64,000 nucleotides of DNA from the NCBI GenBank assembly GCA_041742395.1, contig JBGSIS010000010.1, positions 724 through 64,723 on the forward strand, written 5' to 3'. The translations under genes were made by a program, and so were the position numbers. The notes under the pieces are model-generated. The model ran no database searches. It was not told the origin of the DNA and worked only from the letters and a program-made list of their open reading frames with translations. The stretch is from Candidatus Saccharimonadales bacterium. GTDB taxonomy: Bacteria; Patescibacteriota; Saccharimonadia; Saccharimonadales; JACQNP01. Shown one piece after another: positions 20,166-43,485 of the stretch (the first letter of the stretch is position 1; every line of letters begins with the position of its first letter).

Positions 20166-20220
20166 GTTGAAGGTTCCAAAAAACGGAACTCCCCTTATGA
20201 CAACTAAATAAGGGAGAATT

Positions 20221-20388
20221 ATGGAGAAACCCATAGTACATATCGAGCAACAGCTCGAGCATATCAAACAAGCAATAGACCAAGGACTGGACGACCAGTC
20301 CTTTTTTTATGCCTCGGAACAGCCTGACATAAAACAAAGAACGCTGCCCACAAAATTTATCATGCAACGAATGCTCAGGGTGGAATAA
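20221..20388 (+). CDS. Small ORF (55 aa) leading the island operon
   Basis: Below the ORF-track size cutoff. SD AAGGGAG lies 4 nt upstream of the ATG. Translates MEKPIVHIEQQLEHIKQAIDQGLDDQSFFYASEQPDIKQRTLPTKFIMQRMLRVE. The stop is 4 nt before the next ATG (20393). Confidence 0.35.
   Translation: MEKPIVHIEQQLEHIKQAIDQGLDDQSFFYASEQPDIKQRTLPTKFIMQRMLRVE
20284..20308 (+). terminator. Terminator-like hairpin inside the leader small ORF
   Basis: GGACTGG-ACGA-CCAGTCC followed by T7 (20302-20308). Confidence 0.4.
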
Positions 20389-20392
20389 AAGT

Positions 20393-23416: not shown

Positions 23417-23499
23417 TCGAGGAATACTGGGGGTAATTAATATCTAATTATTCAAAAATTAAAAAATGCAATTATGGGTCGGTTTTTTAACTATATTCT

Positions 23500-23589
23500 T
23501 GGCGGAGAGAGAGGGATTCGAACCCTCGAGACGGTTGCCCGCCTACACGCTTTCCAGGCGTGCCAGTTCAACCACTCCTGCACCTCTCC
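23500..23589 (-). tRNA. tRNA-Ser (anticodon GGA), CCA encoded
   Basis: Hand-folded on the minus strand. Acceptor GGAGAGG/TCTCTCC (one G-U pair), anticodon stem CACGC/GCGTG with loop CTGGAAA, 18-nt variable arm, T arm GAGGG-TTCGAAT-CCCTC, discriminator G, CCA. Confidence 0.9.
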
Positions 23590-23674
23590 ACGCAACACTT
23601 AGTATACGATATGAATTGTTTTTATAGAATTATCTTGCTTAATCTGTTAAATACAGTTTAGAATAGATTGAACG

Positions 23675-24538
23675 ATGCCAGTAATTAATCTCAAAGACGT
23701 CAGCAAACTGTACGGCTTCGGCGACGCCACTACTATAGCGTTAAACGAAGTTTCTTTTAGCGTGGAAAAAGGTGAGTTTGTTGCTATTATGGGTCCTTCT
23801 GGTTCTGGAAAGTCTACCTTGCTAAATATTGTAGGATTACTAGACAGACCATCCCATGGTATTTATGAGTTAGGTGGTAAGCGAGTAGAAAAAATGCGCA
23901 CCAATCAGCAAGCGAAAGTTCGACGGGATACGATTGGTTTTATTTTTCAGTCATTCAATCTACTGCCTAGATTAAACGTTTTAGAAAATGTTGCCCTGCC
24001 CCTCGGATATAAAGGAATGACCCAAACAAGACGTCTCAAAAGAGCTGGCATGATTCTACAAGAAGTTGGTCTTAGCGATAGAGAGTATTTTATGCCGAGA
24101 CAGTTAAGTGGCGGTCAAGCTCAGAGAGTTGCTATAGCAAGGGCTCTAGTGAATAATCCTAAAATTATTATTGCAGATGAGCCAACCGGCAATCTTGATA
24201 GTCAGTCGAGTCTTTTAGTTATGGAGTTATTGGATAGAATACATCGTGATGGCAATACAATTTTGATGGTTACTCATAATCCGGAACTTACTAAATATGC
24301 GTCGAGAGTTGTTTTTATGCATGATGGTTCAATTGTAGCCGACGAAAAATCTGAATTCGGCGACATACCACAATTCATTAGAAGAAGAATGTATAGTGTC
24401 AAAATAAAAACTCAAACCGATAAATTACAGGGTGTTTCGGCAGTCATGAATAATTTGCCAGAAAAATCTGATAATGATTCTGAAAGAAAAAGTAAGAAAA
24501 AACGTAAGTACACTAGAAAAACAAAGGGAGATAAGTAG
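23675..24538 (+). CDS. ABC transporter ATP-binding protein (MacB/LolD/FtsE type) with Lys-rich C-terminal tail
   Basis: 287 aa. Walker A GPSGSGKST, signature LSGGQAQR, Walker B IIIADEPT. The last ~60 aa are K/R-rich. Confidence 0.92.
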   Translation: MPVINLKDVSKLYGFGDATTIALNEVSFSVEKGEFVAIMGPSGSGKSTLLNIVGLLDRPSHGIYELGGKRVEKMRTNQQAKVRRDTIGFIFQSFNLLPRLNVLENVALPLGYKGMTQTRRLKRAGMILQEVGLSDREYFMPRQLSGGQAQRVAIARALVNNPKIIIADEPTGNLDSQSSLLVMELLDRIHRDGNTILMVTHNPELTKYASRVVFMHDGSIVADEKSEFGDIPQFIRRRMYSVKIKTQTDKLQGVSAVMNNLPEKSDNDSERKSKKKRKYTRKTKGDK

Positions 24539-26224: not shown

Positions 26225-26867
26225 TAGCGATGCTGTTTTCTACTTTTTTAAGATAAAAATGTTCGTTGTTTGATAGCCATTCGTCGGTAGCTTTTTTTGC
26301 ACCTGGTAGTTGCTCTGATTGGTAATCATCAATCAGGATGTATCCATTTGGAGACATCTTTTTCTCGATGAGTCTTAAGCTTTGAGCGATCGAATCATAG
26401 TAATCACCATCTAAAAATGCAAATATTATATTGCTTGGCATATCATTGTCATTGAGTTCAGAAAACCAGTTTTTATGTATTCTTGGAATCGGTAATTCGT
26501 GTTTTTTAAAGTTTTCAATAAACTGTTTTTTTGAGTATTTTAGCTGACCTTTTTGGAATTGAGTTCCTGCAGGACTTTGGTCTTGTTTATTTTTTTCTGG
26601 AAGTCCTTCAAAAGAATCATAAACATGGAATTCTACATCAGAATATTTATTTGATCTGAGTAATCTTTGTATCATTAAAGATGTAGTTCCGGCATAACAC
26701 CCCATTTCTATGACATTGCCTTTGGAATTATTGAGAGATATTTGCAAATATTTTAGTATTAATCCGACCTCATCTTTAGTCACTTGATCAGAAATTAATG
26801 AATATTTATTTAAAATTTCAGTTGGCGTCATTCTAGATAAGTGTTTGCCAGTAATACCAAAATTCAT
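26196..26867 (-). CDS. Class I SAM-dependent methyltransferase (TylF/macrocin O-MT-like)
   Basis: 223 aa. IEMGCYAGTTS and FAFLDGDYYDSIAQSL. The likely true start is the internal Met at 26831, which removes the overlap with the VKOR gene. Confidence 0.65.
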   Translation of the reverse strand: MNFGITGKHLSRMTPTEILNKYSLISDQVTKDEVGLILKYLQISLNNSKGNVIEMGCYAGTTSLMIQRLLRSNKYSDVEFHVYDSFEGLPEKNKQDQSPAGTQFQKGQLKYSKKQFIENFKKHELPIPRIHKNWFSELNDNDMPSNIIFAFLDGDYYDSIAQSLRLIEKKMSPNGYILIDDYQSEQLPGAKKATDEWLSNNEHFYLKKVENSIAIIRDGREDY

Positions 26868-27450
26868 TTAATAGAATTAGGAATATTACTGTATACCAAG
26901 CAAGGAGTATATTTATATAGTTATTTTTTATAAATTTTGCTACTCCATTCATTGACTTTGGTAGAGGTAAATTATTATTTTCAATATTGTAAGCAGTAAT
27001 AAAAACAAATATCGGTATAGTAATCATCCAGGTAACGAAGCACCAAGGACAGATAGCATTAATTCTGTATACGCCTTGGAAGAATAAGTAATGCATAAAT
27101 ATAACCCCAACTAAAGATATAAACTGGGCTGACTGCCAGATCCATTTACTGAATTTTGCACCGGATAGCATCAAGAAACCAAAAGTCACTAAAGCTGTAA
27201 AGCCCATTATACCGAATATTGAATTTGGTACGCCAAGTATACTTGCTTGCTCTGTTTTCATAACTGAACCGCAACTAAGTACTGGATTAATATTGCATGG
27301 AGGATTATAGCCAGGGTCTTTGAGAACTTGGATTTTATCATAGGTAAGAATGAATGAGGCAAGCAGCCCAATGATTCCACAAATAATTAATACGTAAGGA
27401 ATATATTTGTTTATTTTTGAAGTAGCTAATTTCTCTTTTATTTTACCCAT
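26833..27450 (-). CDS. Vitamin K epoxide reductase (VKOR) family protein
   Basis: 205 aa, 4-5 TM. Loop cysteines CNINPVLSCGSV and the CPWC redox motif. Confidence 0.8.
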   Translation of the reverse strand: MGKIKEKLATSKINKYIPYVLIICGIIGLLASFILTYDKIQVLKDPGYNPPCNINPVLSCGSVMKTEQASILGVPNSIFGIMGFTALVTFGFLMLSGAKFSKWIWQSAQFISLVGVIFMHYLFFQGVYRINAICPWCFVTWMITIPIFVFITAYNIENNNLPLPKSMNGVAKFIKNNYINILLAWYTVIFLILLNEFWYYWQTLI

Positions 27451-30031: not shown

Positions 30032-30511
30032 TTATTTGATTTTTACTTTACCAATTGAGTAGAACTTAACTAGCGACCATAAAACAATAGCCGATATGGT
30101 TAAGCTACCTATTATGTTTGTAGTACTGTCTTTTTTTAAATTATTAAAAATACTAACATTGTTTGATTCTTCAGGCTTATCTTTGGGCGATTGGTAAAAG
30201 TTATTATAATTATCGCTTACAGGAATATATGTCGTACTTTCCTGGTTATTGTTTAGTTCAGCCTGATTAATTGTTTCTGTAATTGTGTTTGAATTTATCG
30301 TGCTTGGGTTGACTATATCTATTGGCTCTTTTTGGCAGTCTTCTGGTGATATGAATAATTGTGATCCATTTCCAGCATTAACTGCTTCCAAATAGCACTC
30401 TAGGGTCACAATTGACTGTCTAAGATTAACACTTTCAGCATATATGGGCATAAAACTTAATAGGCTAATTAGTGTCGATAAAAACAATATTATTGGTAAT
30501 CTTTGCTTCAC
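30032..30511 (-). CDS. Small secreted protein with C-terminal TM anchor (CscD-position gene of the WxL-like cluster)
   Basis: 159 aa. Signal peptide, N/S/T-rich body, C-terminal IIGSLTISAIVLWSLVKFYSIGKVKIK. No LPXTG seen. Confidence 0.5.
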   Translation of the reverse strand: MKQRLPIILFLSTLISLLSFMPIYAESVNLRQSIVTLECYLEAVNAGNGSQLFISPEDCQKEPIDIVNPSTINSNTITETINQAELNNNQESTTYIPVSDNYNNFYQSPKDKPEESNNVSIFNNLKKDSTTNIIGSLTISAIVLWSLVKFYSIGKVKIK

Positions 30512-32994
30512 TAGTTTGCAACTATAGTTATCGTTAGATTAATATCGTAGCTACCTATAGGTTGTTCTTCAGGAATATACTGCGAAAGATTAATACCGGT
30601 AATATCAAAAATACAGTCGGGGTCTGCGGATGAGTTAGCCGAAGCTAAAGTAAGTGAATCTAAGGTGCCTTGATTAAACGCAGAACTTGCTCCCAGATTT
30701 ACGTTTGAAGTACTGCAACCTGTTTCTGGCGTATTTGTACCTGTTGCTGGATCGATTGTTAGCTGACCAGCCTCGACGTCAATATCTGGTCCATCACTAC
30801 AGCCATTGGGAGTACCGGTCACGTCATTAAAATCGTATTGTTCAGTATCTCCAACATTGCGCCAAAGATCAGTGATTCCAGAAGTTGCAGCAATACTTGC
30901 AGACCAACCAGGAGTTGTAGTTAAGTTACTAATTCTTATTTTTTGGGTCGCTGTTCCTAAACTACCACTGATACTGCTGCAGTTAAAATTATATCCAAAG
31001 TTAGACATAGAATAATTTGGAGCTGCAACAGATGTATCATTATTGTCTACTATATCTAGTGTTAGATTTCCATGATCTGAATCATTCCAGCTGGCATAGT
31101 AGTAAGTACCGCCAGAAGCATTTGTTTCGGTTTGATTACCACCAACCCTAAATCCATTTTTTACAAAGCCTGTAATTCTATCAGCTACATTAGCGGTGGC
31201 AACTAAATACTGGGTACTATTTCCAGATAAACTAACTGGACGATTAACGGCATTAACTCCAGTCGATCTTTTTACCCAGACGTTTTCAGAACGGTGTCCA
31301 GCTGTAGTTATGCTTTGGGCTGCGCCGGTTCCGCTGTAGCTGCCAGCGGTGAAATTAGCGCCGTTCTTAAAGGCAAACCAGTGAGATAAAACTGTATTGG
31401 AATTTGACTGGGCATTGGCCCCTACTTGAAATCCATCGGAGTTTAGGGCTTGTATAACATTTGCCGCATTGGCTGTTGCGCCAAAGTAGGCTGTGCTATT
31501 TCCGGCTAGCGAAGATGGCTTCCAGACTCCAACCTGTGTGGTATTTGTTTTTATTGTTACCATATCTGGTTGCCATGGTAGCCTAGTTATATTGCGAATA
31601 AGTTGATTCCCGTAAAAAGAACCAACGGCAAAATCTGATGAACCGCTGTTATCGTAAGGGTCGAAAGCGTTTCCAAAAGCTTGCCACTGATAAGTTACAC
31701 CAACAGAATTTGTTTGAGCTGCCGTATTGACAGTAAAGCCATCGGCATTTAAAGATGTAATACCGTTAGCAAAATTAGCAACATTATTTGAAAAATATGC
31801 AGTGCTATTACCTTGCATTGTTTTGGTTCTGAAGACACCGAGCTGAGCGGTATTTGCTTTAACAATTACCAGATCTGGTCTAAAACCTAGACCTGTTATT
31901 GGATTACTAGCTCCAGTTCCAGTATATGACCCAGTTTTCATATCGAAAGTTCCACTTGAAGAATTACTAGGTGCACCACCAAGTGCAAACCAATATATTG
32001 TAGCTGTATTGCCATTACTGGAAGCATTATTTCCAACCTGGAATCCGTTGGCTTGAAGAGCTTGTATTCCATTTGTGGTATTAGCAACTAAATCGCCAAC
32101 AAAACTTGAGCTGTCTCCAAAAGAGTCAGTAAAATTCATGAGTGGTCTCCTGTCATTTGCGGTTGCACTGGTGGCGTTTTTGGTAAGAGCAAAGTTTGGA
32201 GTAAAAGAAGCACCAAAGCCAGTAATGTTCCTATTATCGACAGCATTTCCAGTATAAGTGCCTTGGCCAAATAATCCAGCCGTATCTTTAAACGCAACGT
32301 AGTAATACGTCCCAAGGTTAACGTTATCTGTTGCGCCGACTGTAAAGAAAGTTGCGCCAAAATTGCTTATGTATGTTCCTGTAGTATTCCTTGCTGTATT
32401 GTTTAAGAATAGAGTTTCATTAGCTGGTTCTGAAGAAACACGAAAATGACCTGCAACGTTAGTAGAACGCTTAACTATGGTCATATTTGGTTGAAATCCA
32501 GTGGTGATATTTCTTGGCGAAACCCCATTACCGGTATAGCTACCAACACAAAAATTTCCGGTAGCACTACAATCTGAGCCGTCAACCGCTATCCAGTTAT
32601 ATAAAACATTCGCACTATTCACATTAGCAAGAGTACCTAACGTAAAGCCATCAATATCCAGAGTAATTTGAGTAGTAGTGTTGTTAGCCGTGTTAGATGT
32701 ATAGGCTGTGGTATTTGCCGGCATGGCTGAAGTCTTAAAGACTGCAACTCCAGCTGTAGTCGTTGATTTTATTAGAACAAAATCTGGCTGAAAACCGAGG
32801 CCTGTGATTGCATGCCCGGTTACACCGGAACCTACATAATATCCTGATTGCATTGTAAAATTAGCGGCGTCTGCTTGCTGGAAATAATATGTAAATAAGC
32901 TCATAGCAATTACTACTGAATAAAACAGTAAGGCGACTTTGCTTAATCTATTGACTTTTTTAGTTCCTAAAAAGAAAATCTGCTTATTAAGCAT
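30511..32994 (-). CDS. Large secreted protein: six ~95-aa repeats plus C-terminal WxL-like domain
   Basis: 827 aa. Repeat signature G(S/T)YTG(N/T)G...ITG(L)GF(Q/R)PD.V.IK...N(S/T)TAYF...DGF(Q/T)V...Y.W.AF occurs six times. The last ~180 aa align by eye with the 228-aa protein at 34289-34975 (GWSASIAATSGITDLW..YDFND..GQLTIDP..SYDINLTITIVAN). Confidence 0.6.
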   Translation of the reverse strand: MLNKQIFFLGTKKVNRLSKVALLFYSVVIAMSLFTYYFQQADAANFTMQSGYYVGSGVTGHAITGLGFQPDFVLIKSTTTAGVAVFKTSAMPANTTAYTSNTANNTTTQITLDIDGFTLGTLANVNSANVLYNWIAVDGSDCSATGNFCVGSYTGNGVSPRNITTGFQPNMTIVKRSTNVAGHFRVSSEPANETLFLNNTARNTTGTYISNFGATFFTVGATDNVNLGTYYYVAFKDTAGLFGQGTYTGNAVDNRNITGFGASFTPNFALTKNATSATANDRRPLMNFTDSFGDSSSFVGDLVANTTNGIQALQANGFQVGNNASSNGNTATIYWFALGGAPSNSSSGTFDMKTGSYTGTGASNPITGLGFRPDLVIVKANTAQLGVFRTKTMQGNSTAYFSNNVANFANGITSLNADGFTVNTAAQTNSVGVTYQWQAFGNAFDPYDNSGSSDFAVGSFYGNQLIRNITRLPWQPDMVTIKTNTTQVGVWKPSSLAGNSTAYFGATANAANVIQALNSDGFQVGANAQSNSNTVLSHWFAFKNGANFTAGSYSGTGAAQSITTAGHRSENVWVKRSTGVNAVNRPVSLSGNSTQYLVATANVADRITGFVKNGFRVGGNQTETNASGGTYYYASWNDSDHGNLTLDIVDNNDTSVAAPNYSMSNFGYNFNCSSISGSLGTATQKIRISNLTTTPGWSASIAATSGITDLWRNVGDTEQYDFNDVTGTPNGCSDGPDIDVEAGQLTIDPATGTNTPETGCSTSNVNLGASSAFNQGTLDSLTLASANSSADPDCIFDITGINLSQYIPEEQPIGSYDINLTITIVAN

Positions 32995-33005
32995 TAAAGC
33001 CCACC

Positions 33006-34286
33006 TTATTGTTTATCTTTTTCTTCTTTACTGCTTTCTTTAGTGACTGTTGATTTCTTCTTAGTTTTTTTTGAGTCACTTTTTTTTGCTTTGGGCTTTT
33101 TGTCAGATTTTGGGCTTACTTTTTTCTTAGTTTTCTTAACTACTTTGGGAATATAGTTTGAACCAGGCACAACATTGATTACCTCTAAACCTTCTAGAAT
33201 ATATGGTGCCTTTAGTTTATTTATCTTGGCAATGGTTTTCCAATCAGCTTCATATTCTTTGGAAATTGATGTAATAGAATCTTTCTTTTTTACTTTATGT
33301 TCAATAATCTTGCCTTTGATTTCTTTATCGTACTTTCGCTTTGAAATAATTTTATATGAAATAAATACCAGTATGGCCAGCAGAAGTATATAAATAACTA
33401 TCATAAGTGGATTAGGTGCTACAAAAATTAATTTAGATTTACTGACCGTTTTAGAAGAATTTCCTTTTTCACCTAAAGAAGTTGTCGGATCGTCGCTATA
33501 TGAAGCACTAGAACTTATTAAGTAGGCTCCCCCGATAAAAGGTTTCTTAAGTTCAAAGTTAAACTCAGAAGTTTGACCGGCCAGTATCGGGAATTCGCCG
33601 CCAGTTGAGTTTACGGTTGTACCAAACAATGTCTTTAATTTTGTTTGTAAATTAGTGTCTAAAGATACATTACCAGAGTTCCTGAGCTTTTCATTTATTA
33701 GTAAAAGGTCACCCTTATTCTTTACGCTAAGTGATTCGAAGGTTAAGCCTTTAGTAAACTCACCAGGAACTGTTATTGCAACTCTAATAGCTGATCTAAA
33801 ACTTAGAGTGACACCACTTACCTGGCTCTGCTGAGGTGGTTCAACGGCTTGAATTGCAATACAAGCATTATGCTCACCTGGTGAAGCATCATTTGGAACT
33901 TCAATTTTAAATCCAATAGTTTCGGACTGATTACTACTTAATTCCAGTTTTTCTTTTTTAAGTTTAATCCAGGAGCCTTCATTGTCTAAGTTATCGGCTT
34001 TTTGTTCGCAAGCAAATGCCCCGCCACTAGATATTTGAGCATCTGTGGGATAAAGTAGAATATTTCTTGCACTGTCCGAGGAGTTAGAGACAATAATGGC
34101 ATCCTCGACACTTTTTCCAGGACTAATTTCATGTACAAAAATTGATTGAGTTCGGGGATTGTCGTCTCGTGGATTAGCTGGTTTAGCTCCAACCCCACTA
34201 CTCTCAGTTGCGTAGGCGCTCGACACAAAGCCAAATAGAATAAATAGCCCCACCGCCAAATTGGTAATTTTGGCGATTTTGAACAT
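33006..34286 (-). CDS. DUF916/DUF3324-like (CscA-like) surface protein with TM anchor, LysM-like segment and Lys-rich tail
   Basis: 426 aa. Signal peptide. KPANPRDDNPRTQSIFVHEISPGKSVEDAIIVSNSS matches the DUF916 pattern. TM at aa 292-313. HKVKKKDSITSISKEYEADWKTIAKINKLKAPYILEGLEVINVVP (aa 329-374) is LysM-like. The tail is K-rich. Confidence 0.6.
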   Translation of the reverse strand: MFKIAKITNLAVGLFILFGFVSSAYATESSGVGAKPANPRDDNPRTQSIFVHEISPGKSVEDAIIVSNSSDSARNILLYPTDAQISSGGAFACEQKADNLDNEGSWIKLKKEKLELSSNQSETIGFKIEVPNDASPGEHNACIAIQAVEPPQQSQVSGVTLSFRSAIRVAITVPGEFTKGLTFESLSVKNKGDLLLINEKLRNSGNVSLDTNLQTKLKTLFGTTVNSTGGEFPILAGQTSEFNFELKKPFIGGAYLISSSASYSDDPTTSLGEKGNSSKTVSKSKLIFVAPNPLMIVIYILLLAILVFISYKIISKRKYDKEIKGKIIEHKVKKKDSITSISKEYEADWKTIAKINKLKAPYILEGLEVINVVPGSNYIPKVVKKTKKKVSPKSDKKPKAKKSDSKKTKKKSTVTKESSKEEKDKQ

Positions 34287-34288
34287 AT

Positions 34289-34975
34289 TTAGCTAGCTGT
34301 TACCGTTACCGTGAAGTTAATGTCATATGAATCAACAGATTGTTCGGCAGGAATTGATTGAGAAAGTCCGATATCTGTAAGATAACCTCTCCACACATCG
34401 TCTGAACCGGATCCAGCGTTTAATAAGGTAACGCTGTCGGTAGTTCCCTGATTAAAGGCAGTTGATGTACCTTTAGTTACGCTTGTTGCAGTACAAGAAA
34501 CACAGTCAGTTGTAAGAGTACTTACACTAGGATCAATAGTTAGTTGACCACCTCTGGTGTCAGCATCTCCACCATCAGTACAACCCGAACCACCTGGATC
34601 ATTGAAATCATAAGTTTGTGTTGCTCCGGCGTTTTCCCATACTGAAGTAATCCCAGATGTAGCCGCAACAGCAAGAGTCCATCCGTTATCTGCTCCGTCA
34701 GGATTTATAACGTACATCCTTTGGGAGGCACTTGCTAGTAATCCTGTAGATGCGCTACCACCTGACTGACAGTTAAATGAAAATGTCTTTGATCCTAGAG
34801 CGAATGTTGGTGAACCGACAGGCACCCTAGATCCGTCAAGTATGTCAGTTGAAATTGTTCCAGCTGTTATTGACTGTGTTAAGTCTGGAGTACTGGCAGC
34901 TGAAGCTACTCCGCTGAAACTAAGTAATACTAATAGCATACTTATAAATGCTAAGTTAATCCTTTTTATGTTCAT
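34289..34975 (-). CDS. Small secreted WxL-like domain protein (CscB-like)
   Basis: 228 aa. Signal peptide ending GVASAAS. DNGWTLAVAATSG (first WxL-type motif). C-terminal SYDINFTVTVTAS sits at the position of the second motif. Homologous to the C-terminus of the 827-aa protein. Confidence 0.6.
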   Translation of the reverse strand: MNIKRINLAFISMLLVLLSFSGVASAASTPDLTQSITAGTISTDILDGSRVPVGSPTFALGSKTFSFNCQSGGSASTGLLASASQRMYVINPDGADNGWTLAVAATSGITSVWENAGATQTYDFNDPGGSGCTDGGDADTRGGQLTIDPSVSTLTTDCVSCTATSVTKGTSTAFNQGTTDSVTLLNAGSGSDDVWRGYLTDIGLSQSIPAEQSVDSYDINFTVTVTAS

Positions 34976-35028
34976 TAAAAACCCCTCTTATGTCTATAAT
35001 TTTCGCAAATCATAAGCAAAATGTCAAA

Positions 35029-37389
35029 CTAAAGAATTTGCTTTTTTGTAGCAAAGTTAAATGCAATGAATCCAGGTATGATTGGTACCCAAAAAGTAAT
35101 TAATCTATATAGTAATGACACACTAAGTCCGATGTCTGCAGGTATGCCTATCGATACAAATCCGGCTACAAGTCCAGCTTCGGCACCACCAATACCGCCT
35201 GGAGTTGGCGTAACGCTGGCAGCCGTCGCCCCAATTGTAAATACAAAGAATGCTTGAAGTATCGATATATCTACTCCAAGTGATTGAGCACAAACATATA
35301 AGCATAGTGCATAAAAGCTGGTAATACTCATGGCACTAATTAAAGCAAAGAAAAATCTATCAGGGTGTTCAAAAAGCTTAGTCATATCTTCGCGGATAGA
35401 CCGTATTATTCTCATTGCTTTTAATCTTAGTTTTCTGGTAAAAGTAATGGCAAGTATTAAAGAAAATACAACAATCACAGCGAAGAATACAACTTTTCTA
35501 GATACTGGAATCTTTACGACTTCTCTAAAAGAACTGCTACTAAGTCCGGCGACAATAAATAAAATACAAATATGGCCAATAAGCCCGACTAAGTTATTGA
35601 GGGCAGTTATTGAGGAAGCTTGAACAGTGTCATAGCCTACCTTTTGTAAGTATCTAATATTAGTTGCAATGCCGCCTGCACTGGCTGGTAGTAATCTATT
35701 TGTGAAGCTGGTACTTATTGTAACGAGTAGCGTCTTGAAATAGTTAATAGGTAAATACGATAGGAATTTATATACCCCAGCAGCCGATAAATATGTTGCT
35801 CCGGAAAGAGCGAAAGCCCATAATATGTATCTTGTATCGGCAGTTTTGATAGCATCCATACTGTCGGATAAATTACCTAGTTGGGGTATGAAAACATAAA
35901 GGGCTAAACCGAACATGACAGTATAAAAAACTGCTTTAGTATCTATTCTTTTAATTTTTGCTTTTTTAATCGTCTCTTTATTTAACTCACTTAAAATATT
36001 CTGTCTGATTTCTTGGAGTTTCCCTTTTTGTTGCTTAAGCAGTTTTGTTGTTGCTCCAGAAAGAGAAGCATAGTCTAGATAAGGATAAGCTAATTCTAAT
36101 TCTTTTTCGCCCATTATTTTTACTGCGGTTTTAATAACGTCTTTAGTATCTGCGATTACTGATAACGATGCTATTAGCTCGACCGTATCTCTATAGAAAC
36201 TGTGCTCTTCAACCGATGCTTCAGAAAATCCGAAGTCTATAATCCAAGGTTCATCTTGATCATCTATAAATATATTTGCGACTCTTAGATCCCGGTGAAT
36301 TATATTTGAGCCATGAAGAATTTTAACTTGTTTCCAGATGTTCTCCAGAATTTCTAAATTAACATTGTTAGGATCAATTTTATCCAAAGATTTTCCATCA
36401 ATCATTTCTTGAGCCATTGCCCACATATCTTCTTTGATATGGAATATACCCCTTATTTTGGGCGTTCTTACACCATTACTAAATGCTAAACCTGCAACAT
36501 AGGCTTCATGTTCTAGTTGGCGTTTTGGTGTCATGAAAGGTGCTTCGTCTTCAAGCCGTCTATAGATAACTTTTCTAGTTAGTTTGAATAGCCAGTCGGC
36601 TACGTTATTGCTGCTATCTACTACTTTTACGAATAGGTTTTTACCGTCTTTAACCTTAACGAAAAATGGAGTACTTCCTCTAGCATCAACTTTTGCTTTT
36701 TCAATATGAACTATCTTTAGATGTAGTACGGAAATCTTCTTTTTTATTAAAGAAGTTGGTACGTATTTTCCTTGAGTATCACCAAAAGCAAAATTCAAGA
36801 CACTAGATATTGCAAGTCCGACTCCAAACCCTCCAATAACATCAACTGGCAAGTGCATTCCCAAATATATTCTGGAAATACAAACAAGTATTATCATCCA
36901 GGTAATGTACTTATGGAATACTTTTGGAGTATATACATAAGCGATAGTTCCGAGTGCCGTGGCTACCGCCGCATGGCCTGAAGGATAGCCTACAATTGAA
37001 TCTAAGTTCTCTCTTAGTTGCACATTAGAAAGTATTTCCGAAGGTCTTAGCCTTGATTCATAAGTCTTTAGCCATTTAGTTATGACCCAGGCTAGTACAC
37101 CTGCTAGTAGGAATTTTGCAGAATGGGCATAGTGTCTTCTTAGTAATGTGGCTATTGTGGCTACAAAGACAAAACCTATGGTTCCGAATACTGAGATTAA
37201 GACAAAAATTGGCGCTAAAAAGCCCGGCAAACTATTAAAAAATCTAAATAAATAAAGTTCTAATGTACCTATACCGCTATCTACAAGGAGCTGCCCAAAT
37301 AGAAAAATAGATATACCTGCAGCTGCGTAAACAATATAAACTGGATTTCTATATGAATTTATTCTATGTTTCAGCGCTGTCTTTAACAT
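35029..37389 (-). CDS. Tri-domain fusion: PAP2 phosphatase - protein-kinase-like domain - lysyl-PG-synthase-type (flippase-like) TM domain
   Basis: 786 aa. Complete PAP2 signature K108x6RP, PSGH (136-139), SRx5Hx3D (172-183). Kinase catalytic loop IIHRDLRVAN (HRD 365-367) and DFG (385-387). C-terminal ~300 aa multi-TM region resembling the LPG_synthase_TM/UPF0104 family. Confidence 0.75.
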   Translation of the reverse strand: MLKTALKHRINSYRNPVYIVYAAAGISIFLFGQLLVDSGIGTLELYLFRFFNSLPGFLAPIFVLISVFGTIGFVFVATIATLLRRHYAHSAKFLLAGVLAWVITKWLKTYESRLRPSEILSNVQLRENLDSIVGYPSGHAAVATALGTIAYVYTPKVFHKYITWMIILVCISRIYLGMHLPVDVIGGFGVGLAISSVLNFAFGDTQGKYVPTSLIKKKISVLHLKIVHIEKAKVDARGSTPFFVKVKDGKNLFVKVVDSSNNVADWLFKLTRKVIYRRLEDEAPFMTPKRQLEHEAYVAGLAFSNGVRTPKIRGIFHIKEDMWAMAQEMIDGKSLDKIDPNNVNLEILENIWKQVKILHGSNIIHRDLRVANIFIDDQDEPWIIDFGFSEASVEEHSFYRDTVELIASLSVIADTKDVIKTAVKIMGEKELELAYPYLDYASLSGATTKLLKQQKGKLQEIRQNILSELNKETIKKAKIKRIDTKAVFYTVMFGLALYVFIPQLGNLSDSMDAIKTADTRYILWAFALSGATYLSAAGVYKFLSYLPINYFKTLLVTISTSFTNRLLPASAGGIATNIRYLQKVGYDTVQASSITALNNLVGLIGHICILFIVAGLSSSSFREVVKIPVSRKVVFFAVIVVFSLILAITFTRKLRLKAMRIIRSIREDMTKLFEHPDRFFFALISAMSITSFYALCLYVCAQSLGVDISILQAFFVFTIGATAASVTPTPGGIGGAEAGLVAGFVSIGIPADIGLSVSLLYRLITFWVPIIPGFIAFNFATKKQIL

Positions 37390-37396
37390 GACGGTA

Positions 37397-40135
37397 TCAA
37401 GTTTTAGCGGATGACTTTTTTCTAATATTTACAAACCAAAGCTTAGTTCTGCTCCTGAAGAATTCTAGTATTAAGTAATAGTAAGGAAATGAGATTATTA
37501 CAAGTACAGCACTACTTATAAGTCCGCCGATTAGCGTAAAAGCTAGATTTTCCCAGAAAGGATCGCTAAGAGCCAATGGTATTAAAGCTGCGATGGCAGT
37601 TGTAGTGGTTGTAAGTAATGGCCTAAACCTTTCTTTGATTGCTTGAGCCATGGACTGTCTTGGCGAGTAGCCTAACTTTCTCTTTTGATTTGCATAGTCC
37701 GTCAGGAGAATAGAGTTATTCACGGAAATTCCGATTAAGGCGAAGAACCCTATCATAGTAAAGAACGACAATGGGTTATCTGTAGAGCTTAATATTAGGC
37801 CGACCCCAAAGAAACTAAATGGTACTGCTACTAGAATTAATATTGGTTGCAGGAAAGACCTGAACTGAAAGGCTAACAATAGATACATTACCAAAACCAG
37901 AATTGGAAGTGAAATTAGTACAGTACTAAATGAATCTTGATTTTGTGATTCTGAACCAAAGTCGAATGCAAAGTCGCTTTCACTAAGCCCTAGAGTATAG
38001 TCTTTGTTAGGTATGAATTCGTCTTCTACGACTTTTTGAGTAGCTTGTACTAATGCTGAAGTGTCATCGGAGTCGAAGCTTGCTTTTACTTCTACAACTC
38101 TATTTCCGTCTATTCTGGTAATTGTAACAAGTTCACCAGTGTATTCGGTTTTGTTAATTTGGGCTGTAGTGCCGTTATTTCTTTCTATAGTCTTATCGGT
38201 TAAAAATTTTACGAGATTATTGGCAACTTTATCGGCCTTAACAGGATCTTCGGCTGCAATCTGAACTTTAAATGGTAATTTTTCTTTTGGCGGTCCCGAA
38301 CTCACTTGGCTTACATATATATCGGCACCCGGTACTGAGCTTAGTTCTTGGGATAATTTCTCGACATACTCTTTACTAGTGGTATCTCTCTTATCAATAG
38401 GAGTAAGTGTAATATTGGCAGTTGATTGTCGTTCGTTAGCATCGCCTAAATAAGTAACTTTACTTATGTCATCGCCTAGTTTGGATGCTATTTTTGAATT
38501 AGCTTCGGCGGTAATTTCTTGAGCCTCTTCAATGCTTGTTCCAGGAGCAAATGTGAATTGTATCTGTAGTTCATTGGAATCTTTTGGAGTTGGGAAAATA
38601 TCAAACTTTAGTTTTGAAAATAGGGGCCCGCTACCTAACAGCACTATTAAACTGAAGGAAACTGCTGCTAGGGAATAAGCCGCTTTTCTTTTAGTAGAGT
38701 TTGCTGAAAGAATAATCCTTGAAAATAAGTTTCCAAGCCAGAATACACCACTACGAAAGTATTCAAATGGATTACGATTATTAGCTTTTTTATTTTCAGT
38801 CTTGTGAATGAATCTGGACATGAACGGAACGAATGTTAGTGATACTAATAGTGATACAAATAGATTAACAATTATAGTAATAGGTAGAACTCTTATAAAT
38901 TCTCCCAATATTCCTCCAAAGAATAATAATGGAGCAAATCCAAGAACTGTAGTTAATGTCCCGGCTGAACTAGCAGTTGCAATTTTCTTAATTGAAATAG
39001 CAATCGAATCTCTGGTGTCTTTATTTCTTTGTCTTTCTCTATCTATTGATTCCGCTACGATCACAATGTCGTCAACTATTAGTCCTAAACAAAGAACTAA
39101 CCCAAATAAGGTAATTGTATTTAAAGATATACCACTCAAGTAGAAAATACCTAGAGACATACTTATTGTCATCACCATAGCTAAAGCAGCAATTAATCCC
39201 GTCTTGAAACCTATATACAAGAAACAAACCAGAACAACAATTATTAATCCTTCAAGCAAATTTTTCTGAAGTGACTTTATTTGTTGCTCAATGTTTTCAG
39301 CAAAACCAGCAGCTTCGACAATTACCAGGCCGTCATTAGAGTATTTCTGGTTGATGTTAGTAAGTTCTTCCTTGAATACTTTATTGAAAGATATTATGTC
39401 GGTTCCTTCTTCAAGATTTATTCCGACAATTATGCTTGAATTAATTTCAAACTGATTATTGACTTTTGATCCAAGCCAATCAAATTTTGTCTGTTGGGTT
39501 GAAGATTTACCGGTAACTGGATTAGTTGCAGTATTTACCAGCTTTATTGTTTCTGCTGAGTTAATTTCTTCAAATTTTTGGTTTAAAGATTCACCGATTT
39601 CATCTGCTTTTTGTGACAGTAATTGATTTTCGGCATCTTTACTGGAAATTCCTACAAGTATGTCGTATTTATTATTGAACTTTGTAGCATCAATAGAGTT
39701 AAAGCTAACTTGAGCACCTTCTGGCAATTTGGTTCCACTAGATTCTAGTTTATTTTTTATCGAATCTGAACCTTCCGAAGAAGTGTATTCATCCTGGTGT
39801 TCAACTACAATTATTGCTCCATTGTTAGTGCTATTTGCTGTAGTTTTCTTTACAGTGCTATCCTCTTTTATTGAGTTTAGGATGGGAAGTGTTATATCTT
39901 GATCTACTTTATTTTTATCATCAGCAAAATACAGCACTTGAACAGTGCTTATCGATACATTAACCTGAGGAAAACCCTCTCTTTGCATGAATGTTGTATA
40001 TGAGAAGAATCCAAATAGTAAAACAGAAACCCAAATAAATATACTTGTTTTTACATGGTCAAAGAAAAATAGACTCAGTTTTTGAAACAAGCTAAGCTTT
40101 ATGGGGTCTTTACTCTTCTTCACTTTTTTAGTCAC
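37397..40135 (-). CDS. RND-superfamily transporter permease
   Basis: 912 aa. 12-TM 1+5/1+5 layout with two large external loops. N-terminus FMQREGFPQVNVSISTVQVLY is typical of AcrB-like proteins. No adaptor or outer-membrane factor gene is adjacent. Confidence 0.8.
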   Translation of the reverse strand: MTKKVKKSKDPIKLSLFQKLSLFFFDHVKTSIFIWVSVLLFGFFSYTTFMQREGFPQVNVSISTVQVLYFADDKNKVDQDITLPILNSIKEDSTVKKTTANSTNNGAIIVVEHQDEYTSSEGSDSIKNKLESSGTKLPEGAQVSFNSIDATKFNNKYDILVGISSKDAENQLLSQKADEIGESLNQKFEEINSAETIKLVNTATNPVTGKSSTQQTKFDWLGSKVNNQFEINSSIIVGINLEEGTDIISFNKVFKEELTNINQKYSNDGLVIVEAAGFAENIEQQIKSLQKNLLEGLIIVVLVCFLYIGFKTGLIAALAMVMTISMSLGIFYLSGISLNTITLFGLVLCLGLIVDDIVIVAESIDRERQRNKDTRDSIAISIKKIATASSAGTLTTVLGFAPLLFFGGILGEFIRVLPITIIVNLFVSLLVSLTFVPFMSRFIHKTENKKANNRNPFEYFRSGVFWLGNLFSRIILSANSTKRKAAYSLAAVSFSLIVLLGSGPLFSKLKFDIFPTPKDSNELQIQFTFAPGTSIEEAQEITAEANSKIASKLGDDISKVTYLGDANERQSTANITLTPIDKRDTTSKEYVEKLSQELSSVPGADIYVSQVSSGPPKEKLPFKVQIAAEDPVKADKVANNLVKFLTDKTIERNNGTTAQINKTEYTGELVTITRIDGNRVVEVKASFDSDDTSALVQATQKVVEDEFIPNKDYTLGLSESDFAFDFGSESQNQDSFSTVLISLPILVLVMYLLLAFQFRSFLQPILILVAVPFSFFGVGLILSSTDNPLSFFTMIGFFALIGISVNNSILLTDYANQKRKLGYSPRQSMAQAIKERFRPLLTTTTTAIAALIPLALSDPFWENLAFTLIGGLISSAVLVIISFPYYYLILEFFRSRTKLWFVNIRKKSSAKT

Positions 40136-40463: not shown

Positions 40464-40946
40464 CTAGTTTTGAGTCGTTGATTCTTCGGTAGTCTGTTCT
40501 TTTACAGTCACAACAGCATTGAATTTTACTGGATCATTTTTATCTTGAATATTAAATGTTCCTTCATCTTCAAATATATAGGCGTAAGATCCGCCCTTTG
40601 TAGTAACTTCTTCGGCGTCAAATTCTTCAAGCTTTAACTCGTCTGCGGGACTTTGAATTATTTCGATATTACCATCCGAATTATTAGTAAACTGTATTTG
40701 TGTTCCTGGTTTTACGGAAATTGTATTTGGGGTAAATCCTTCATTGACTATCACAAGTTCTGAATTAGGTGAATTATCAGTACTTACGGTTGTCTGTTGG
40801 GTTGAGTCATTATTTTTATCCATCACTACCGCTACGATAGATACCACTAGGATTGTAATAACTACTAGAGCGGCTAGAACTATTACTTTTTTATTAAATG
40901 GATGTTTAACATTTTTTACGGAAGTATTTTGAGGCTGATTTTCCAT
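40464..40946 (-). CDS. Membrane-anchored cupredoxin-fold-like protein (no Cu ligands evident)
   Basis: 160 aa. N-terminal TM. FTPNTISVKPGTQIQFTNNSDG...GTFNI...AVVTVKE resembles cupredoxin/EfeO-like domains, but there is no Cys and the His/Met ligands are not evident. Confidence 0.4.
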   Translation of the reverse strand: MENQPQNTSVKNVKHPFNKKVIVLAALVVITILVVSIVAVVMDKNNDSTQQTTVSTDNSPNSELVIVNEGFTPNTISVKPGTQIQFTNNSDGNIEIIQSPADELKLEEFDAEEVTTKGGSYAYIFEDEGTFNIQDKNDPVKFNAVVTVKEQTTEESTTQN

Positions 40947-40947
40947 T

Positions 40948-43485
40948 TTATTTCCTCACCATTTCTACATTAATTATTTCAATTATTTCAGATCCAAGTT
41001 TGACTGGCTGAGATAAGTTTCTATAACCGATTCGGTCAAAGTTGATGTTATTAACTCTAGTAGGTACGTTAAGTAAGAAGTATATACCTGAAGAACCTGT
41101 TCGATATGTTCTTAAGTTTGATCCATCAAAGTAAGATACCTTAACTCCTCTGAGTCGTGATCTTGAAGATTTATCTATTACTCTTCCACCGATGAACACT
41201 TCCTTCAATTGACTTACAGAAGAAGTTGTAGCTGAAGAAGAGCCAGACTTAGTACTTACATTTCCTGCGACATCATATGCGGAGACACTATAGCTGTAGG
41301 TCGTAGCAGGTTGGAGTGTAGCGTCTGCAAAACTTGTGCCTGTTAATCTTTTGATCTCTGTTCCGTTTCTGTAGACTATATATCCTGCAACTCCAGTGTT
41401 GTCTGTGCTAGCAGCCCAGCTAATGTTAATTTGATTTGTACCAGTAGCTACGGTAATTACATTTTGTGGCACAGTTGGTGCAGCGGTGTCAGGTGTTGGC
41501 GGAGCAGTAATCCTTACTGAAATAGAGTTGGAAATGTTAGACGGGTTATTGTTGTTATCTCTAGCTTGTACTGTGTATGTATATTGAGTGTCGTAGGAAA
41601 TATTAGTGTTTGTATAGGTCGTTTGAGTTGTGCTTGCAATTGCTTGGCCATTTCTATAAACGGTATAGTTTTTAATTCCACTACTATCACTTGAAGCTGA
41701 CCAATTTAAAACTACATTGGTGTTATTGGTAATAGTGTATGACAGGTTACTTGGTGTTGATGGGGCTGTAGTGTCGGGAGGTACTGGGTAGTTTACTGAT
41801 ACCTGGCTTGTAAATGCACTCTGATTATTGTTTGTGTCGTAGGCAGCAATTCTATACTGATAAGTTTTTCCTTGCGATACAGCTCCATCGTTTAAGGATG
41901 TAGCGGCGGCATTTACAGCAAGAGTTGAAGTTAATACGTTATCTGTATATTTTTCAATCCTATAACCACCTAACTGTACATTATCTGTGCTTGCGACCCA
42001 GTTTAGTGTCACTACACCGTTGGCTAAGTTAGCACTAAAGTTTGTTGGTGTTGATGGGGCTGTAGTGTCTGGTGGCGGTACAACTATGTTTTGCACGTTT
42101 ATGGTTACACTTGAAGTAGCTTGATTATTATTACCGTCAAATACTCTGGATAAAATTGTATGTTGGCCGTTTGTTAGTTTTGTTGTATCTAGGCTGAATC
42201 CATAAGGACTTGAGCTGTCGGAACTATTTAATGTGCCATCAACAAAGAAGTCTACTCTGCTAACTCTATCGTTATCATTGGCGGTTACAGCAACGTTGAC
42301 TAATCCTTGTACAGTCGCACCTGCAGTTGGTGCCGAAGTAGAAATTGTTGGTAGTACGTTATCTACTGGAGTAGACTGAATCGCTACAAAAGCTGATTGG
42401 TTGCCAGTTTTATCTTTGGCGGCTACTTCAAAGTTATATGCGCTACCATTGGTTAATCCGGTAAATGTATAGGTGTTAGTTGTTACGTTAGATACATTTG
42501 TGTAAGTTGTACCACTAGCTGTTTTGTAGCGTAATTGGTAGTTTAGGAAATCTGGATCTGAATTTGCTATCCATGAAATCTTAACTTGATTACTGGTAGC
42601 GCTATCTACTTTAAGTCCTGTTGGAGTGGCTGGAGGTGTAGTATCTGGTGGAGCTACTGGTGTTGCATTTATAGCGGCGTAGTTTGAGAAATTACCATTT
42701 GTATCAGTAGCCCTAACTTCAATTACGTAGGTCGTGCCGTTGGTTAAATTAGTAATTGTTTGGCTGGTTTGAACTGTACTATTAGTTGCAACTATATAAG
42801 AAGTACTGTTAGCTACTTTGTATCTTACTTGGTAATCCCTAAGATCATTCTCAGTATTGGCATTCCATGAAACAGTAGCAATTTTGTCGCCATTAGTTAC
42901 CTTAAGCCCGGTTGGAGTGGCTGGAGGTGTAGTATCGGGTGGCGGTGGCGGGCTGTTAATCGTGATAGATGTGTTTTGAGATACGCTTAGTAGATTTGGT
43001 GGCGGTAATTGAGAAGACGCGCTGAACATCGAGGACTCAGTTTTATTTACCGTAATAGAGGTATTACCACTTCCAATTGCTTTAAATCTTGCCTTAAATA
43101 TATTTGCATTGGCGGAGTTTACTGGTGAAAATGACGTAGTATTATATGTTAGCTTTCCTGGAGTGGCTTGGTTTAATATTGGGTCATTAAAACTAAATGC
43201 ACTGGATGATTTATCAAAAGCTATAAACTCTAGGTTGGCAGGATTATATTCAATTACAGCCTTAACACTAGTAATGCTTTCGCCTCCAGTATTTGTGTTG
43301 ACTGAAAAAGTAACCTCATCGTTTAGCTTGGCGCTACTACTGGATGCAGTTATAAATATTGATGTCGTTGGAGACGCATTAACTATCAATATAATCATTG
43401 ACCCAATTAAGGCGAAAATTAGGGCGACTATTATTAACTTATTTTTACTTTTCGGTATTTGTTTTAAATTAGATACTTTATTCAT
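40948..43485 (-). CDS. Large secreted adhesin-like protein: cohesin-like domain, 5 FN3 modules, Ig-like module, CarboxypepD_reg-like C-terminus
   Basis: 845 aa. Signal anchor. Cohesin-like EVTFSVNTNTGGESITSVKAVIEYNPANLEF. FN3 modules are each introduced by PPDTT(P/A)P(A/S)TP. Ends GGRVIDKSSRSRLRGVKVSY... Confidence 0.7.
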   Translation of the reverse strand: MNKVSNLKQIPKSKNKLIIVALIFALIGSMIILIVNASPTTSIFITASSSSAKLNDEVTFSVNTNTGGESITSVKAVIEYNPANLEFIAFDKSSSAFSFNDPILNQATPGKLTYNTTSFSPVNSANANIFKARFKAIGSGNTSITVNKTESSMFSASSQLPPPNLLSVSQNTSITINSPPPPPDTTPPATPTGLKVTNGDKIATVSWNANTENDLRDYQVRYKVANSTSYIVATNSTVQTSQTITNLTNGTTYVIEVRATDTNGNFSNYAAINATPVAPPDTTPPATPTGLKVDSATSNQVKISWIANSDPDFLNYQLRYKTASGTTYTNVSNVTTNTYTFTGLTNGSAYNFEVAAKDKTGNQSAFVAIQSTPVDNVLPTISTSAPTAGATVQGLVNVAVTANDNDRVSRVDFFVDGTLNSSDSSSPYGFSLDTTKLTNGQHTILSRVFDGNNNQATSSVTINVQNIVVPPPDTTAPSTPTNFSANLANGVVTLNWVASTDNVQLGGYRIEKYTDNVLTSTLAVNAAATSLNDGAVSQGKTYQYRIAAYDTNNNQSAFTSQVSVNYPVPPDTTAPSTPSNLSYTITNNTNVVLNWSASSDSSGIKNYTVYRNGQAIASTTQTTYTNTNISYDTQYTYTVQARDNNNNPSNISNSISVRITAPPTPDTAAPTVPQNVITVATGTNQINISWAASTDNTGVAGYIVYRNGTEIKRLTGTSFADATLQPATTYSYSVSAYDVAGNVSTKSGSSSATTSSVSQLKEVFIGGRVIDKSSRSRLRGVKVSYFDGSNLRTYRTGSSGIYFLLNVPTRVNNINFDRIGYRNLSQPVKLGSEIIEIINVEMVRK
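41751..42069. repeat. 25-nt direct repeat pair inside the FN3 gene (41751-41775 and 42045-42069)
   Basis: ttggtgttgatggggctgtagtgtc occurs at both sites, 294 nt (98 codons) apart. It encodes the PDTTAPSTP linker. Confidence 0.85.
42620..42942. repeat. 32-nt direct repeat pair inside the FN3 gene (42620-42651 and 42911-42942)
   Basis: gttggagtggctggaggtgtagtatc[t/g]ggtgg, 31/32 identical, 291 nt (97 codons) apart. It encodes the PPDTTPPATPTGLKV linker. Confidence 0.85.

Follow-up and report, generated by a model that had tools for sequence, protein, structure and literature searches.

A four-gene cluster on the minus strand

The window analysed here is a stretch of 64,000 nucleotides from a Candidatus Saccharimonadales bacterium (assembly GCA_041742395.1, contig JBGSIS010000010.1, positions 724 to 64,723), a member of the Candidate Phyla Radiation (CPR; also called Patescibacteria). 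Four co-directional open reading frames (ORFs) on its minus strand, here called S, W, L and D, together span positions 30032-34975, where a first-pass annotation made from the letters alone had described four nearly abutting genes; the spacing is 2 nt between S and W and 11 nt between W and L, with a 1-nt overlap where L meets D. S (34975..34289) encodes a protein of 228 residues and an isoelectric point of 4.1, in which a signal peptide and a conserved N-terminal peptide precede a beta domain of ~190 residues with four conserved cysteines. W (34286..33006) encodes 426 residues with an isoelectric point of 9.5 and is a homologue of the WxL-interacting protein (WxLIP, CscA), L (32994..30511) is a large secreted protein of 827 residues, and D (30511..30032) is a small anchored protein of 159 residues. 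The arrangement looks like one operon, of which the window holds a single copy. A GAGGGG ribosome-binding site lies ahead of the ATG of S, and a promoter-like site, TTGACA-17-(TG)CGAAAAT with a TG-extended GAAAAT (34999..35027, minus strand), is found upstream of S at a position that fits an operon start. This site matches the consensus at 10 of 12 positions; the promoter scan as a whole gave a count of such sites in the region that is not above shuffle expectation. We propose that the operon probably encodes a surface-display complex that is built around a WxLIP and is widespread in the CPR.

W is a WxL-interacting protein homologue

On sequence evidence, W is established as a member of the DUF916/WxLIP family. 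Its first domain (residues 27-172, 33771..34208) is matched by the Pfam model PF06030 (DUF916, now WxLIP_PGBD, after the peptidoglycan-binding domain, PGBD) over residues 36-144, with 28.1 bits, slightly over the gathering score of 27.3. As a Firmicute reference, genuine WxL clusters were taken from six genomes (an Enterococcus faecium assembly, Bacillus cereus, Aerococcus urinaeequi, Enterococcus mansonii, Companilactobacillus and Salinicoccus), and profiles were compared by hhalign. Against the Firmicute WxLIPs, the full-length CPR W family reached a probability of 97.9% (E 5.5e-13, residues 22-277 against 19-284), and the first domain alone reached 96.9% (E 1.8e-10) against the Firmicute PGBD. 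The first-pass annotation had assigned the N-terminal half of W to the DUF916/DUF3324 pattern, and the DUF916 part of that assignment stands. The second domain (residues 173-283, 33438..33770) occupies the position of DUF3324/HBD in the full-length alignment, and its membership of that family is suggested by this position, by its size and by the collinear extension of the alignment. It is followed by a hydrophobic transmembrane helix at about residues 284-316 (33339..33437, from a hydropathy scan), which confirms the anchor that had been noted before. W is like the WxLIPs described by Hassan, Chaudhuri and Williamson (2023) in its homologous first domain, ectodomain length, two-domain layout and C-terminal helix, and in the alignment NPRxxSIF stands opposite the conserved motif NQxDKxxxYFDL. 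Both PF06030 and LysM are found in the precomputed annotation of most of the 120 listed homologues of W, and one JGI record among them is named 'LysM domain-containing protein/WxL interacting protein'.

Unlike the published WxLIPs, most CPR members of the family continue beyond the helix. In the window protein this extension comprises a LysM domain (residues 326-366, 33189..33311; PF01476 matches residues 330-365 with 29.5 bits against a gathering score of 20.9) and a polybasic tail of low complexity (residues 367-426, 33009..33188), neither of which the first-pass annotation had recognised. LysM is present in 60 of the 70 W proteins of at least 300 residues, and in the window protein, as in all 60 LysM-bearing relatives, it begins 8-12 residues past the helix and is followed by no later hydrophobic segment. 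The 110 residues past the helix of the window protein, that is LysM and tail together, hold 35 lysines and arginines against 15 aspartates and glutamates. In the ten relatives that lack LysM the tail past the helix has a median length of 9 residues, as in Firmicutes.

S and L share a C-terminal domain, in L behind presumed cargo

The homology between the 228-residue protein and the last ~180 residues of the 827-residue protein, which the first-pass annotation had pointed out, is far beyond chance. Residues 39-228 of S (34292..34861) and residues 642-827 of L (30514..31071) are 43% identical (E 3e-43), and the alignment contains every block that had been quoted, namely GW(T/S)(L/A)..AATSGIT, YDFND, GQLTIDP, FNQGT.DS.TL and SYDIN(F/L)T(V/I)T(V/I). 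We regard both segments as putative WxL-like docking domains; in S the first motif reads G98-W99-T-L101 and the second T-V-T-V, and the copy in L lacks the N-terminal peptide of S. The domain is not covered by the common family collections. S itself gave no match in Pfam, NCBIfam or PHROGs, none of its 120 listed homologues carries a Pfam domain, and a profile search of the PDB with S returned one unrelated weak match only. Two members of the family do show weak Pfam matches to Peptidase_M73 (E 0.039), presumably the TasA/camelysin family, whose fibres we take to be assembled by donor strands; these matches may reflect a common 'xGTLxxD' N-terminal motif.

A profile of the S/L domain retrieved 710 proteins at E<=1e-3, 401 of them at E<=1e-30, from 1.84 billion cluster representatives (clusters at 50% identity). 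The domain runs to the extreme C-terminus in 263 of 267 extracted sequences, which comprise 171 small and 96 large proteins (300-1744 residues). Most members possess four conserved cysteines and an acidic insert, DFNDP..GC.DG.DAD, neither of which has a counterpart in WxL domains. Ahead of the domain, L carries six repeats of ~100 residues (31072..32859; repeat starts at residues 46, 148, 242, 350, 455 and 548), also new relative to the first-pass annotation, that resemble DUF7483 and phage tail fibres and are presumed to be binding cargo. PF24299 (DUF7483) matches four stretches of L (E 4.8e-32, 111.8 bits against a threshold of 27), and the tail-fibre family phrog_24898 of PHROGs matches five (E 3.8e-28). 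The regions that precede the domain vary among 69 large proteins: DUF7483 (6), Laminin_G_3 (5) and Ig_Rha78A_N (4) occur beside DUF2341, an SdiA-regulated propeller, PATR, beta-helix, BNR and H-type lectin domains, and most are unannotated. Judged from these architectures, the family follows the pattern of a constant docking module combined with exchangeable binding modules. Within L we also observed 32 N-x-S/T sequons, where 19 +/- 3.6 are expected from composition; they often fall at the same position of the repeat (GNSTAY, ANTTAY), which might reflect glycosylation or mere conservation of the repeat.

The anchored protein D

D was described earlier as small, C-terminally anchored and free of an LPXTG motif, and its build bears this out. 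A signal peptide is followed by a peptide resembling that of S (VNLRQSIVT), a module with two cysteines, a polar linker of low complexity, and a C-terminal hydrophobic helix with a basic end. In an iterative search, genes of the same family were found directly after L (or W) in most of about 40 related loci, with the same plan of signal peptide, conserved peptide, two-cysteine module (..EC...D.G....P.EC), linker rich in proline, serine and threonine, helix and basic end. An LPXTG-like motif is absent from D and from all four proteins of the cluster. The window encodes a sortase at a distance of 16 kb from the four genes (392 residues; 13301-14479, minus strand; PF04203, 90 bits, TLITC motif).

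The cluster is spread across the CPR

One genome per GTDB species was scanned, which gave 165 relatives, of which 80 loci were kept. Almost all of these loci are labelled CPR/Patescibacteria and they cover more than ten candidate phyla, with labels from Saccharibacteria, Microgenomates, Doudna-, Peri-, Gracili-, Falkow-, Kerfeld-, Dojka-, Andersen-, Pacei- and Parcubacteria; a few loci carry labels of metagenome-assembled genomes such as Gammaproteobacteria or Limnocylindria, and these labels were judged untrustworthy. The survey that the first-pass annotation had called for thus places the cluster in the CPR, and its view of a CPR-like host agrees with the closest relatives of the window proteins, which belong to Saccharibacteria. 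Its further suggestion, that the cluster is possibly ancestral or laterally acquired, is unsupported as stated, and the spread over many CPR lineages weighs against a recent transfer into this genome.

Gene order was read, by a scan with our own profiles, from the 55 loci in which the sequence continues for at least 5 kb past S on the downstream side. The order S-W-L-D occurs in 23 of the 55 loci and S-W-L in nine, and the remainder are variants such as L-S-W and duplications. A W of at least 250 residues is present in 49 of the 55 loci; the rest include Gracilibacteria and Peribacteria with fragmented ORFs, a fragmentation that we presume to result from their alternative genetic code. The same operon stands in differing chromosomal contexts among the related loci examined. 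In four loci, labelled Kerfeldbacteria, Microgenomates or Gammaproteobacteria (L055, L065, L069 and L074), the S-W pair is tandemly duplicated to S-W-S-W-L, or in L074 to S-W-L-W-L; the module can be multiplied at a single locus, a behaviour also seen for the WxL genes of Companilactobacillus, of which L087 holds nine.

By exact-sequence look-up, members of the S family were found in Candidatus Nanosynbacter lyticus (WP_408912849.1) and in Nanogingivalaceae, in both cases annotated 'hypothetical protein', and the adjacent W in Ca. Minimicrobia vallesae is annotated 'DUF916 domain-containing protein'. Four loci of oral or animal-associated Saccharibacteria (L082-L085) are laid out alike: their S belongs to the present family (129-141 bits), their W has 322-337 residues and no LysM, and the L protein of L082 contains RCC1 repeats. 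The S proteins of these four loci (for instance L083:6938-7630) lack the cysteine-rich acidic insert and look more WxL-like. The cluster appears to come in two subtypes.

Relation to the WxL clusters of Firmicutes

The WxL/Csc clusters of Lactobacillales and Bacillales contain a WxLIP (CscA), a small WxL protein (CscB), a large WxL protein (CscC) and an LPXTG protein (CscD) (PMC1534035, PMC9772566, PMC10599100), and the published cluster amounts to one WxLIP and two domain-sharing proteins within four genes (PMC10599100). The CPR cluster likewise holds a DUF916 membrane protein, with the C-terminal transmembrane helix that is typical of a WxLIP, beside a small protein, made up of a signal peptide and the common domain, and a large protein in which that domain comes last, behind other folds; these other folds are variable adhesin or lectin modules in both systems. 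A small, secreted, C-terminally anchored fourth protein is present as well and, as in Firmicutes, opens with the N-terminal strand motif of the small protein. The small protein is acidic and the WxLIP basic, and the first GWxL motif is present. The parallel with the four Csc roles that the first-pass annotation had drawn is borne out at the level of this architecture; by sequence, the domain of S and L is not recognised as WxL.

The differences lie mainly in the domain itself. Instead of two adjacent PF13731 proteins, the CPR cluster has two adjacent proteins that share a domain which is missed by PF13731 and by profile-profile comparison and which has only the first of the two Trp-x-Leu motifs that in WxL lie on adjacent strands. 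CPR S and L carry one domain type with 43% identity, whereas Firmicutes have distinct small and large subtypes, and most CPR members add the four cysteines and the acidic insert. D is anchored by a helix, not by LPXTG, despite the sortase encoded 16 kb away; W usually bears LysM and a polybasic tail; and the hosts are CPR bacteria, not Firmicutes.

In spite of the failure of the standard models, several comparisons hint at a common origin of the S/L and WxL domains. The first GWxL motif is kept, its tryptophan and leucine being conserved in at least 90% of sequences. A greedy or global profile alignment of the two domains is collinear from end to end with all landmarks in register: GxLSxD(I/Y)(L/V) at the first strand, VxNP..NGWTL against VxDxRGTxAGWxL, GQLT against GAxL, a conserved alanine, the tryptophan of GTW, LSQxIP against LxVP, and SYxxNxT(V/L)T against xYxAxLTWT. 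With a hidden Markov model (HMM) of WxL, the median score of the 267 CPR domains was 3.0 bits (maximum 10.7) and that of their reversed sequences 0.3 (4.2), and the reciprocal test gave 1.1 (13.2) against -0.5 (6.0) for decoys, a shift that is weak but consistent. In structural models, S (AlphaFold2, AF2; predicted local distance difference test score, pLDDT, 72.5) has 12 strands, all of which map in order onto 12 of the 13 strands of a real Staphylococcus WxL domain (pLDDT 89.4), and of the 63 strand residues of S, 48 coincide with WxL strand residues when the profile alignment is followed at zero shift, against 17-40 at shifts of 2-14. The nearest PDB neighbours are weak for both models alike (Foldseek E at least 0.03, TM 0.25-0.33), and both lists are led by chaperone-usher pilins (FimG, 5iqm_A and 3jwn_G; the CFA/I chaperone-adhesin 6k73_D; CsuA/B), with CfaE also among the weak common neighbours and CanA among the nearest. 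On balance, we give a true, very remote homology of the S/L domain to WxL about even odds. Whatever its descent, going by its placement the domain still appears to fill the WxL role, as it is always C-terminal, alone in S and behind variable cargo in L.

One higher-scoring profile match was discarded. Probabilities of 77.9% and 82.5% over the last ~48 columns appeared in hhalign, and this score needs the signal peptides to be kept in both alignments. The 78 real PF13731 proteins used for comparison were retrieved with a synthetic WxL-like bait (171.8 bits to PF13731); it served no other end and was excluded from every alignment.

A probably related cluster in a cultivated epibiont and earlier reports

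A published supplementary table for Southlakia epibionticum ML1 (Table S2, PMC10633639) contains four consecutive genes that recall the present cluster. SEML1_0628 is a large FN3/RCC1 protein, SEML1_0627 a small protein with a Foldseek TM of 0.85 to a 'WxL domain-containing protein', SEML1_0626 a DUF916 protein of 316 residues without LysM, and SEML1_0625 a small Ig-like 'LPXTG-like' protein whose best match is an LPXTG anchor protein (Table S2, PMC10633639). The four genes appear as rows of that supplementary table, without discussion (PMC10633639). Their layout of large protein, small protein, DUF916 protein and small Ig-like protein is like that of the window cluster, from which they differ in the short, LysM-less DUF916 protein. 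Because L082-L085 share this layout, we infer that SEML1_0627, and with it the cluster, belongs to the present family. A LysM protein of the same genome, SEML1_0652, which lies next to MltG/RuvX, was considered as the orthologue of W by synteny with another locus (L002) and rejected, as it proved to be a LysM-LysM-CHAP protein.

In the published survey of WxLIPs, the DUF916 proteins of TM7x and of a Kazan bacterium are listed as isolated domains without WxL partners. Our literature search found no paper containing both 'WxL' and 'Saccharibacteria', a wider search gave none among its top matches that links WxL or DUF916 to the CPR, and for TM7x_00810-00825 nothing was found in literature text or in one transcriptome supplement.

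Proposed model of a surface-display complex

We propose, with a probability of roughly two in three, that the operon encodes a CPR-wide surface-display complex based on a WxLIP, in which the docking domain of S and L is the equivalent of WxL and possibly its very remote homologue. The cluster would be a variant that works like a WxL cluster without being a member, as S and L fail PF13731 and D has no LPXTG. All four proteins would be exported by Sec. W would then act as the membrane-anchored WxL-interacting protein, with its DUF916/PGBD, a second beta domain and a transmembrane helix, and the S/L domain would dock non-covalently onto W, onto the wall, or onto both. For Enterococcus, an AlphaFold prediction, and that only, has a hairpin strand of the WxLIP PGBD completing the beta sandwich of WxL (PMC10599100), and by analogy a hairpin strand of W may complete the sandwich of the S/L domain. 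The variable N-terminal cargo of L would be displayed at the surface to bind glycans or act as an adhesin, plausibly directed towards the host bacterium of the epibiont, and D would serve as a membrane-anchored stalk in place of the LPXTG protein CscD. The docking, the surface location and the adhesin role are all inferred from gene content and domain architecture.

Cultivated CPR/Patescibacteria live attached to host bacteria, and to our knowledge the molecules that hold them there, type IV pili aside, are largely unknown. An operon that is spread CPR-wide (710 clusters at 50% identity) has the architecture that would be expected of an exchangeable adhesin-display system, and its carriers include Nanosynbacter lyticus, a species that has become accessible to genetics. 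WxL systems are, as far as we know, regarded as essentially confined to Lactobacillales and Bacillales. The CPR DUF916 'orphans' do have partners, too divergent for the Pfam model, which alters the picture of WxL systems, and the case for the cluster as a previously undescribed extension of the known WxL system into bacteria with an open attachment biology is a solid one.

Several observations weigh against this reading, most of them concerned with the identity of the shared domain. The Pfam WxL check that the first-pass annotation had proposed for S and the C-terminus of L was negative: PF13731 matched in none of 118 scans, even at E<=10 (S, the L C-terminus and 116 further members), and the NCBIfam scan gave nothing for a WxL identity. 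Trimming the signal peptides on either side lowers the hhalign score from 41-47 to 18-27 and leaves a probability of 0.8-13%, and block-shuffled decoys did as well as the real alignment in 4 and in 15 trials out of 200. The CPR domain reached 0.8-2% against large WxL by the method that, as a control, joined Firmicute small and large WxL at 97.9% (E 5e-13). The second motif, T-V-T-V in S and T(V/L)T(V/I) in the profile, stands where WxL has T-W-T-L, as the first-pass annotation had seen, and the Asp/Arg pair that precedes the first WxL motif is absent from the S/L domain. By sequence, then, the S/L domain is not detectably a WxL domain. Of the two outcomes that the annotation had named as counting against its view, the lack of a significant relation to WxL was found; assignment to a different known fold family was not. 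In W, the DUF3324 half of the earlier assignment is not significant on its own, as the second domain alone reached 2.1% against the Firmicute DUF3324/HBD, and W is not matched by PF11797 (DUF3324/HBD). The LysM of W is predicted, from the cleaved N-terminal signal peptide and the positive-inside rule, to lie on the cytoplasmic side, where there is no peptidoglycan, a placement that the model leaves unexplained. Finally, SEML1_0625-0628 are non-essential in co-culture transposon sequencing and disruption of SEML1_0625 gives a growth advantage (PMC10633639), so that a requirement of the cluster for host attachment can be claimed in tempered form at most; SEML1_0627 is moreover a presumed member of the S family.

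Possible assembly by strand donation

A peptide common to S and D opens a second possibility, in which the cluster would build a short, pilus-like polymer by strand donation and not simply a docked complex. The mature N-terminus of S (residues 27-38, ..TPDLTQSITA, 34862..34897) follows directly on the signal peptide and is a candidate donor strand by its conservation, a feature that, like its recurrence in D, had escaped the first-pass annotation. The 11 residues ahead of the first strand conform to [L/F]-x-Q-x-I-x-x, with Q and I each conserved in 91% of 223 small proteins, and the corresponding positions of 96 large proteins show no conservation of this peptide. In the AF2 monomer model of S, residues 21-39 have a pLDDT below 50. 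When 24 D proteins were scored with a matrix of the S peptide, the highest-scoring position lay at the mature N-terminus in 15 of them. In Firmicutes, five CscD proteins of LPXTG type open with (S/T)x(A/G)x(I/V)xF, as do the neighbouring small WxL proteins (L003, L004, L086, L087 and L088); aligned pairs of CscD and small WxL include TSRATISFYG and NSNATVSFIAGD, TSTAGIRFVEGD and KSQATVEITPGD, and TTTGVTFTSS and TTTSVEFTAPD. We found no description of this common strand motif in the literature examined. That the small domain protein and the anchored fourth protein have such a peptide in common, in CPR and Firmicute clusters alike, offers a testable assembly hypothesis.

In such a fibre, L, as acceptor only, would form the tip; S, with donor peptide and acceptor, the shaft; and D, with donor peptide, linker and anchor, the base. 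W, whose two Ig-like domains make it reminiscent of PapD-like chaperones, would be chaperone or anchor. The nearest structural neighbours of the S and WxL models, weak as they are, are found among the donor-strand fibres (chaperone-usher pili, TasA/TapA and archaeal cannulae and threads), donor-strand pilins and CanA being the closest. In the Southlakia data, DPAM assigned the first domain of SEML1_0626 to ECOD e4b0mM4 and SEML1_0627 to e6fjyB1 (PMC10633639). Together with the S/D peptide, the pilin-like neighbours and the published prediction of the WxLIP strand that completes the WxL sandwich, this assignment suggests assembly by strand donation. We take e4b0mM4 to be the Caf1M chaperone (a PapD-like chaperone domain) and e6fjyB1 a Csu pilin subunit. 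Against this, none of the Foldseek matches, nor any sequence match to such fibres, is significant, and the peptide similarity is short, with only 29-42% of D scores above the 95th percentile of the controls (42% with other ORFs as controls). No usher-like or polymerising component is evident in the CPR cluster, nor is there evidence of polymerisation, and the literature searched reports no such filament on Saccharibacteria. We consider a fibre of this kind rather improbable.

The wider notion, that WxL-type clusters in the CPR, and by extension in Firmicutes, are strand-donation assembly systems of monoderm bacteria, we regard as unlikely. If it were true, S would cap or extend L, D or CscD would fasten the chain to the cell, and W would be a membrane-bound chaperone, which together would give epibiotic CPR bacteria a modular, exchangeable fibre for host attachment; the LysM of W, instead of being idle in the cytoplasm, might then engage the partner cell's peptidoglycan.

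Rival readings: convergence and phage origin

In a rival reading, the S/L domain would be an unrelated fold that was independently recruited in the CPR to a DUF916 partner, its resemblance to WxL, consisting of one GWxL motif and a beta strand at the C-terminus, being convergent or due to chance. This would account for the failure of the Pfam and profile-profile tests in which the Firmicute control passes, for a decoy test that is only marginal, and for the four cysteines and acidic insert that WxL lacks. It is harder to reconcile with a collinear motif register and strands that map one to one, with a shift between real and decoy scores that is consistent in both directions, with a cluster logic and a nearest PDB class identical to those of WxL, and with the members from oral Saccharibacteria that lack the insert and look more WxL-like. 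We consider such independent recruitment quite unlikely. An origin as the leftover tail-fibre or baseplate module of a prophage, to which the match of the L repeats to phrog_24898 and a weak match of the LysM region of W to a baseplate phrog might point, was rejected as scarcely credible, because the S/L family has no relative in 2.9 million viral contigs, the neighbouring genes are cellular and, in the related loci examined, the operon stands in differing chromosomal contexts.

Genomic surroundings

The neighbours of the operon are unrelated cellular genes, among them a PAP2-kinase-lysyl-phosphatidylglycerol-synthase fusion, an RND-type transporter, an AI-2E transporter, a VKOR protein and a methyltransferase. 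The fusion lies immediately upstream (35029-37389, minus strand) and joins, in 786 residues, a PAP2 phosphatase, a protein-kinase-like domain and a membrane domain of lysyl-phosphatidylglycerol-synthase type; it is followed by an RND/MMPL-type transporter of 912 residues (37397-40135). A VKOR-family protein (PF07884, E 2e-41) is encoded 2.6 kb downstream of the cluster (26833-27450, minus strand). As it is found near a cluster with four conserved cysteines in the S/L domain and two in D, extracytoplasmic disulfide formation may matter for the cluster.

Further upstream, a surface-type protein of 845 residues (40464-43485, minus strand) contains four FN3 domains, Big_7 and a CarboxypepD_reg-like C-terminus; it adjoins a cupredoxin-like protein of 160 residues and lacks the S/L docking domain. 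On the other side of the cluster, positions 20000-24000 of the window stand out by a GC content of 0.44-0.45, against ~0.35 elsewhere. This stretch encodes an AAA_28 protein, an unannotated protein of 258 residues, a family-2 glycosyltransferase and an APH-type kinase, and may be a horizontally acquired island.

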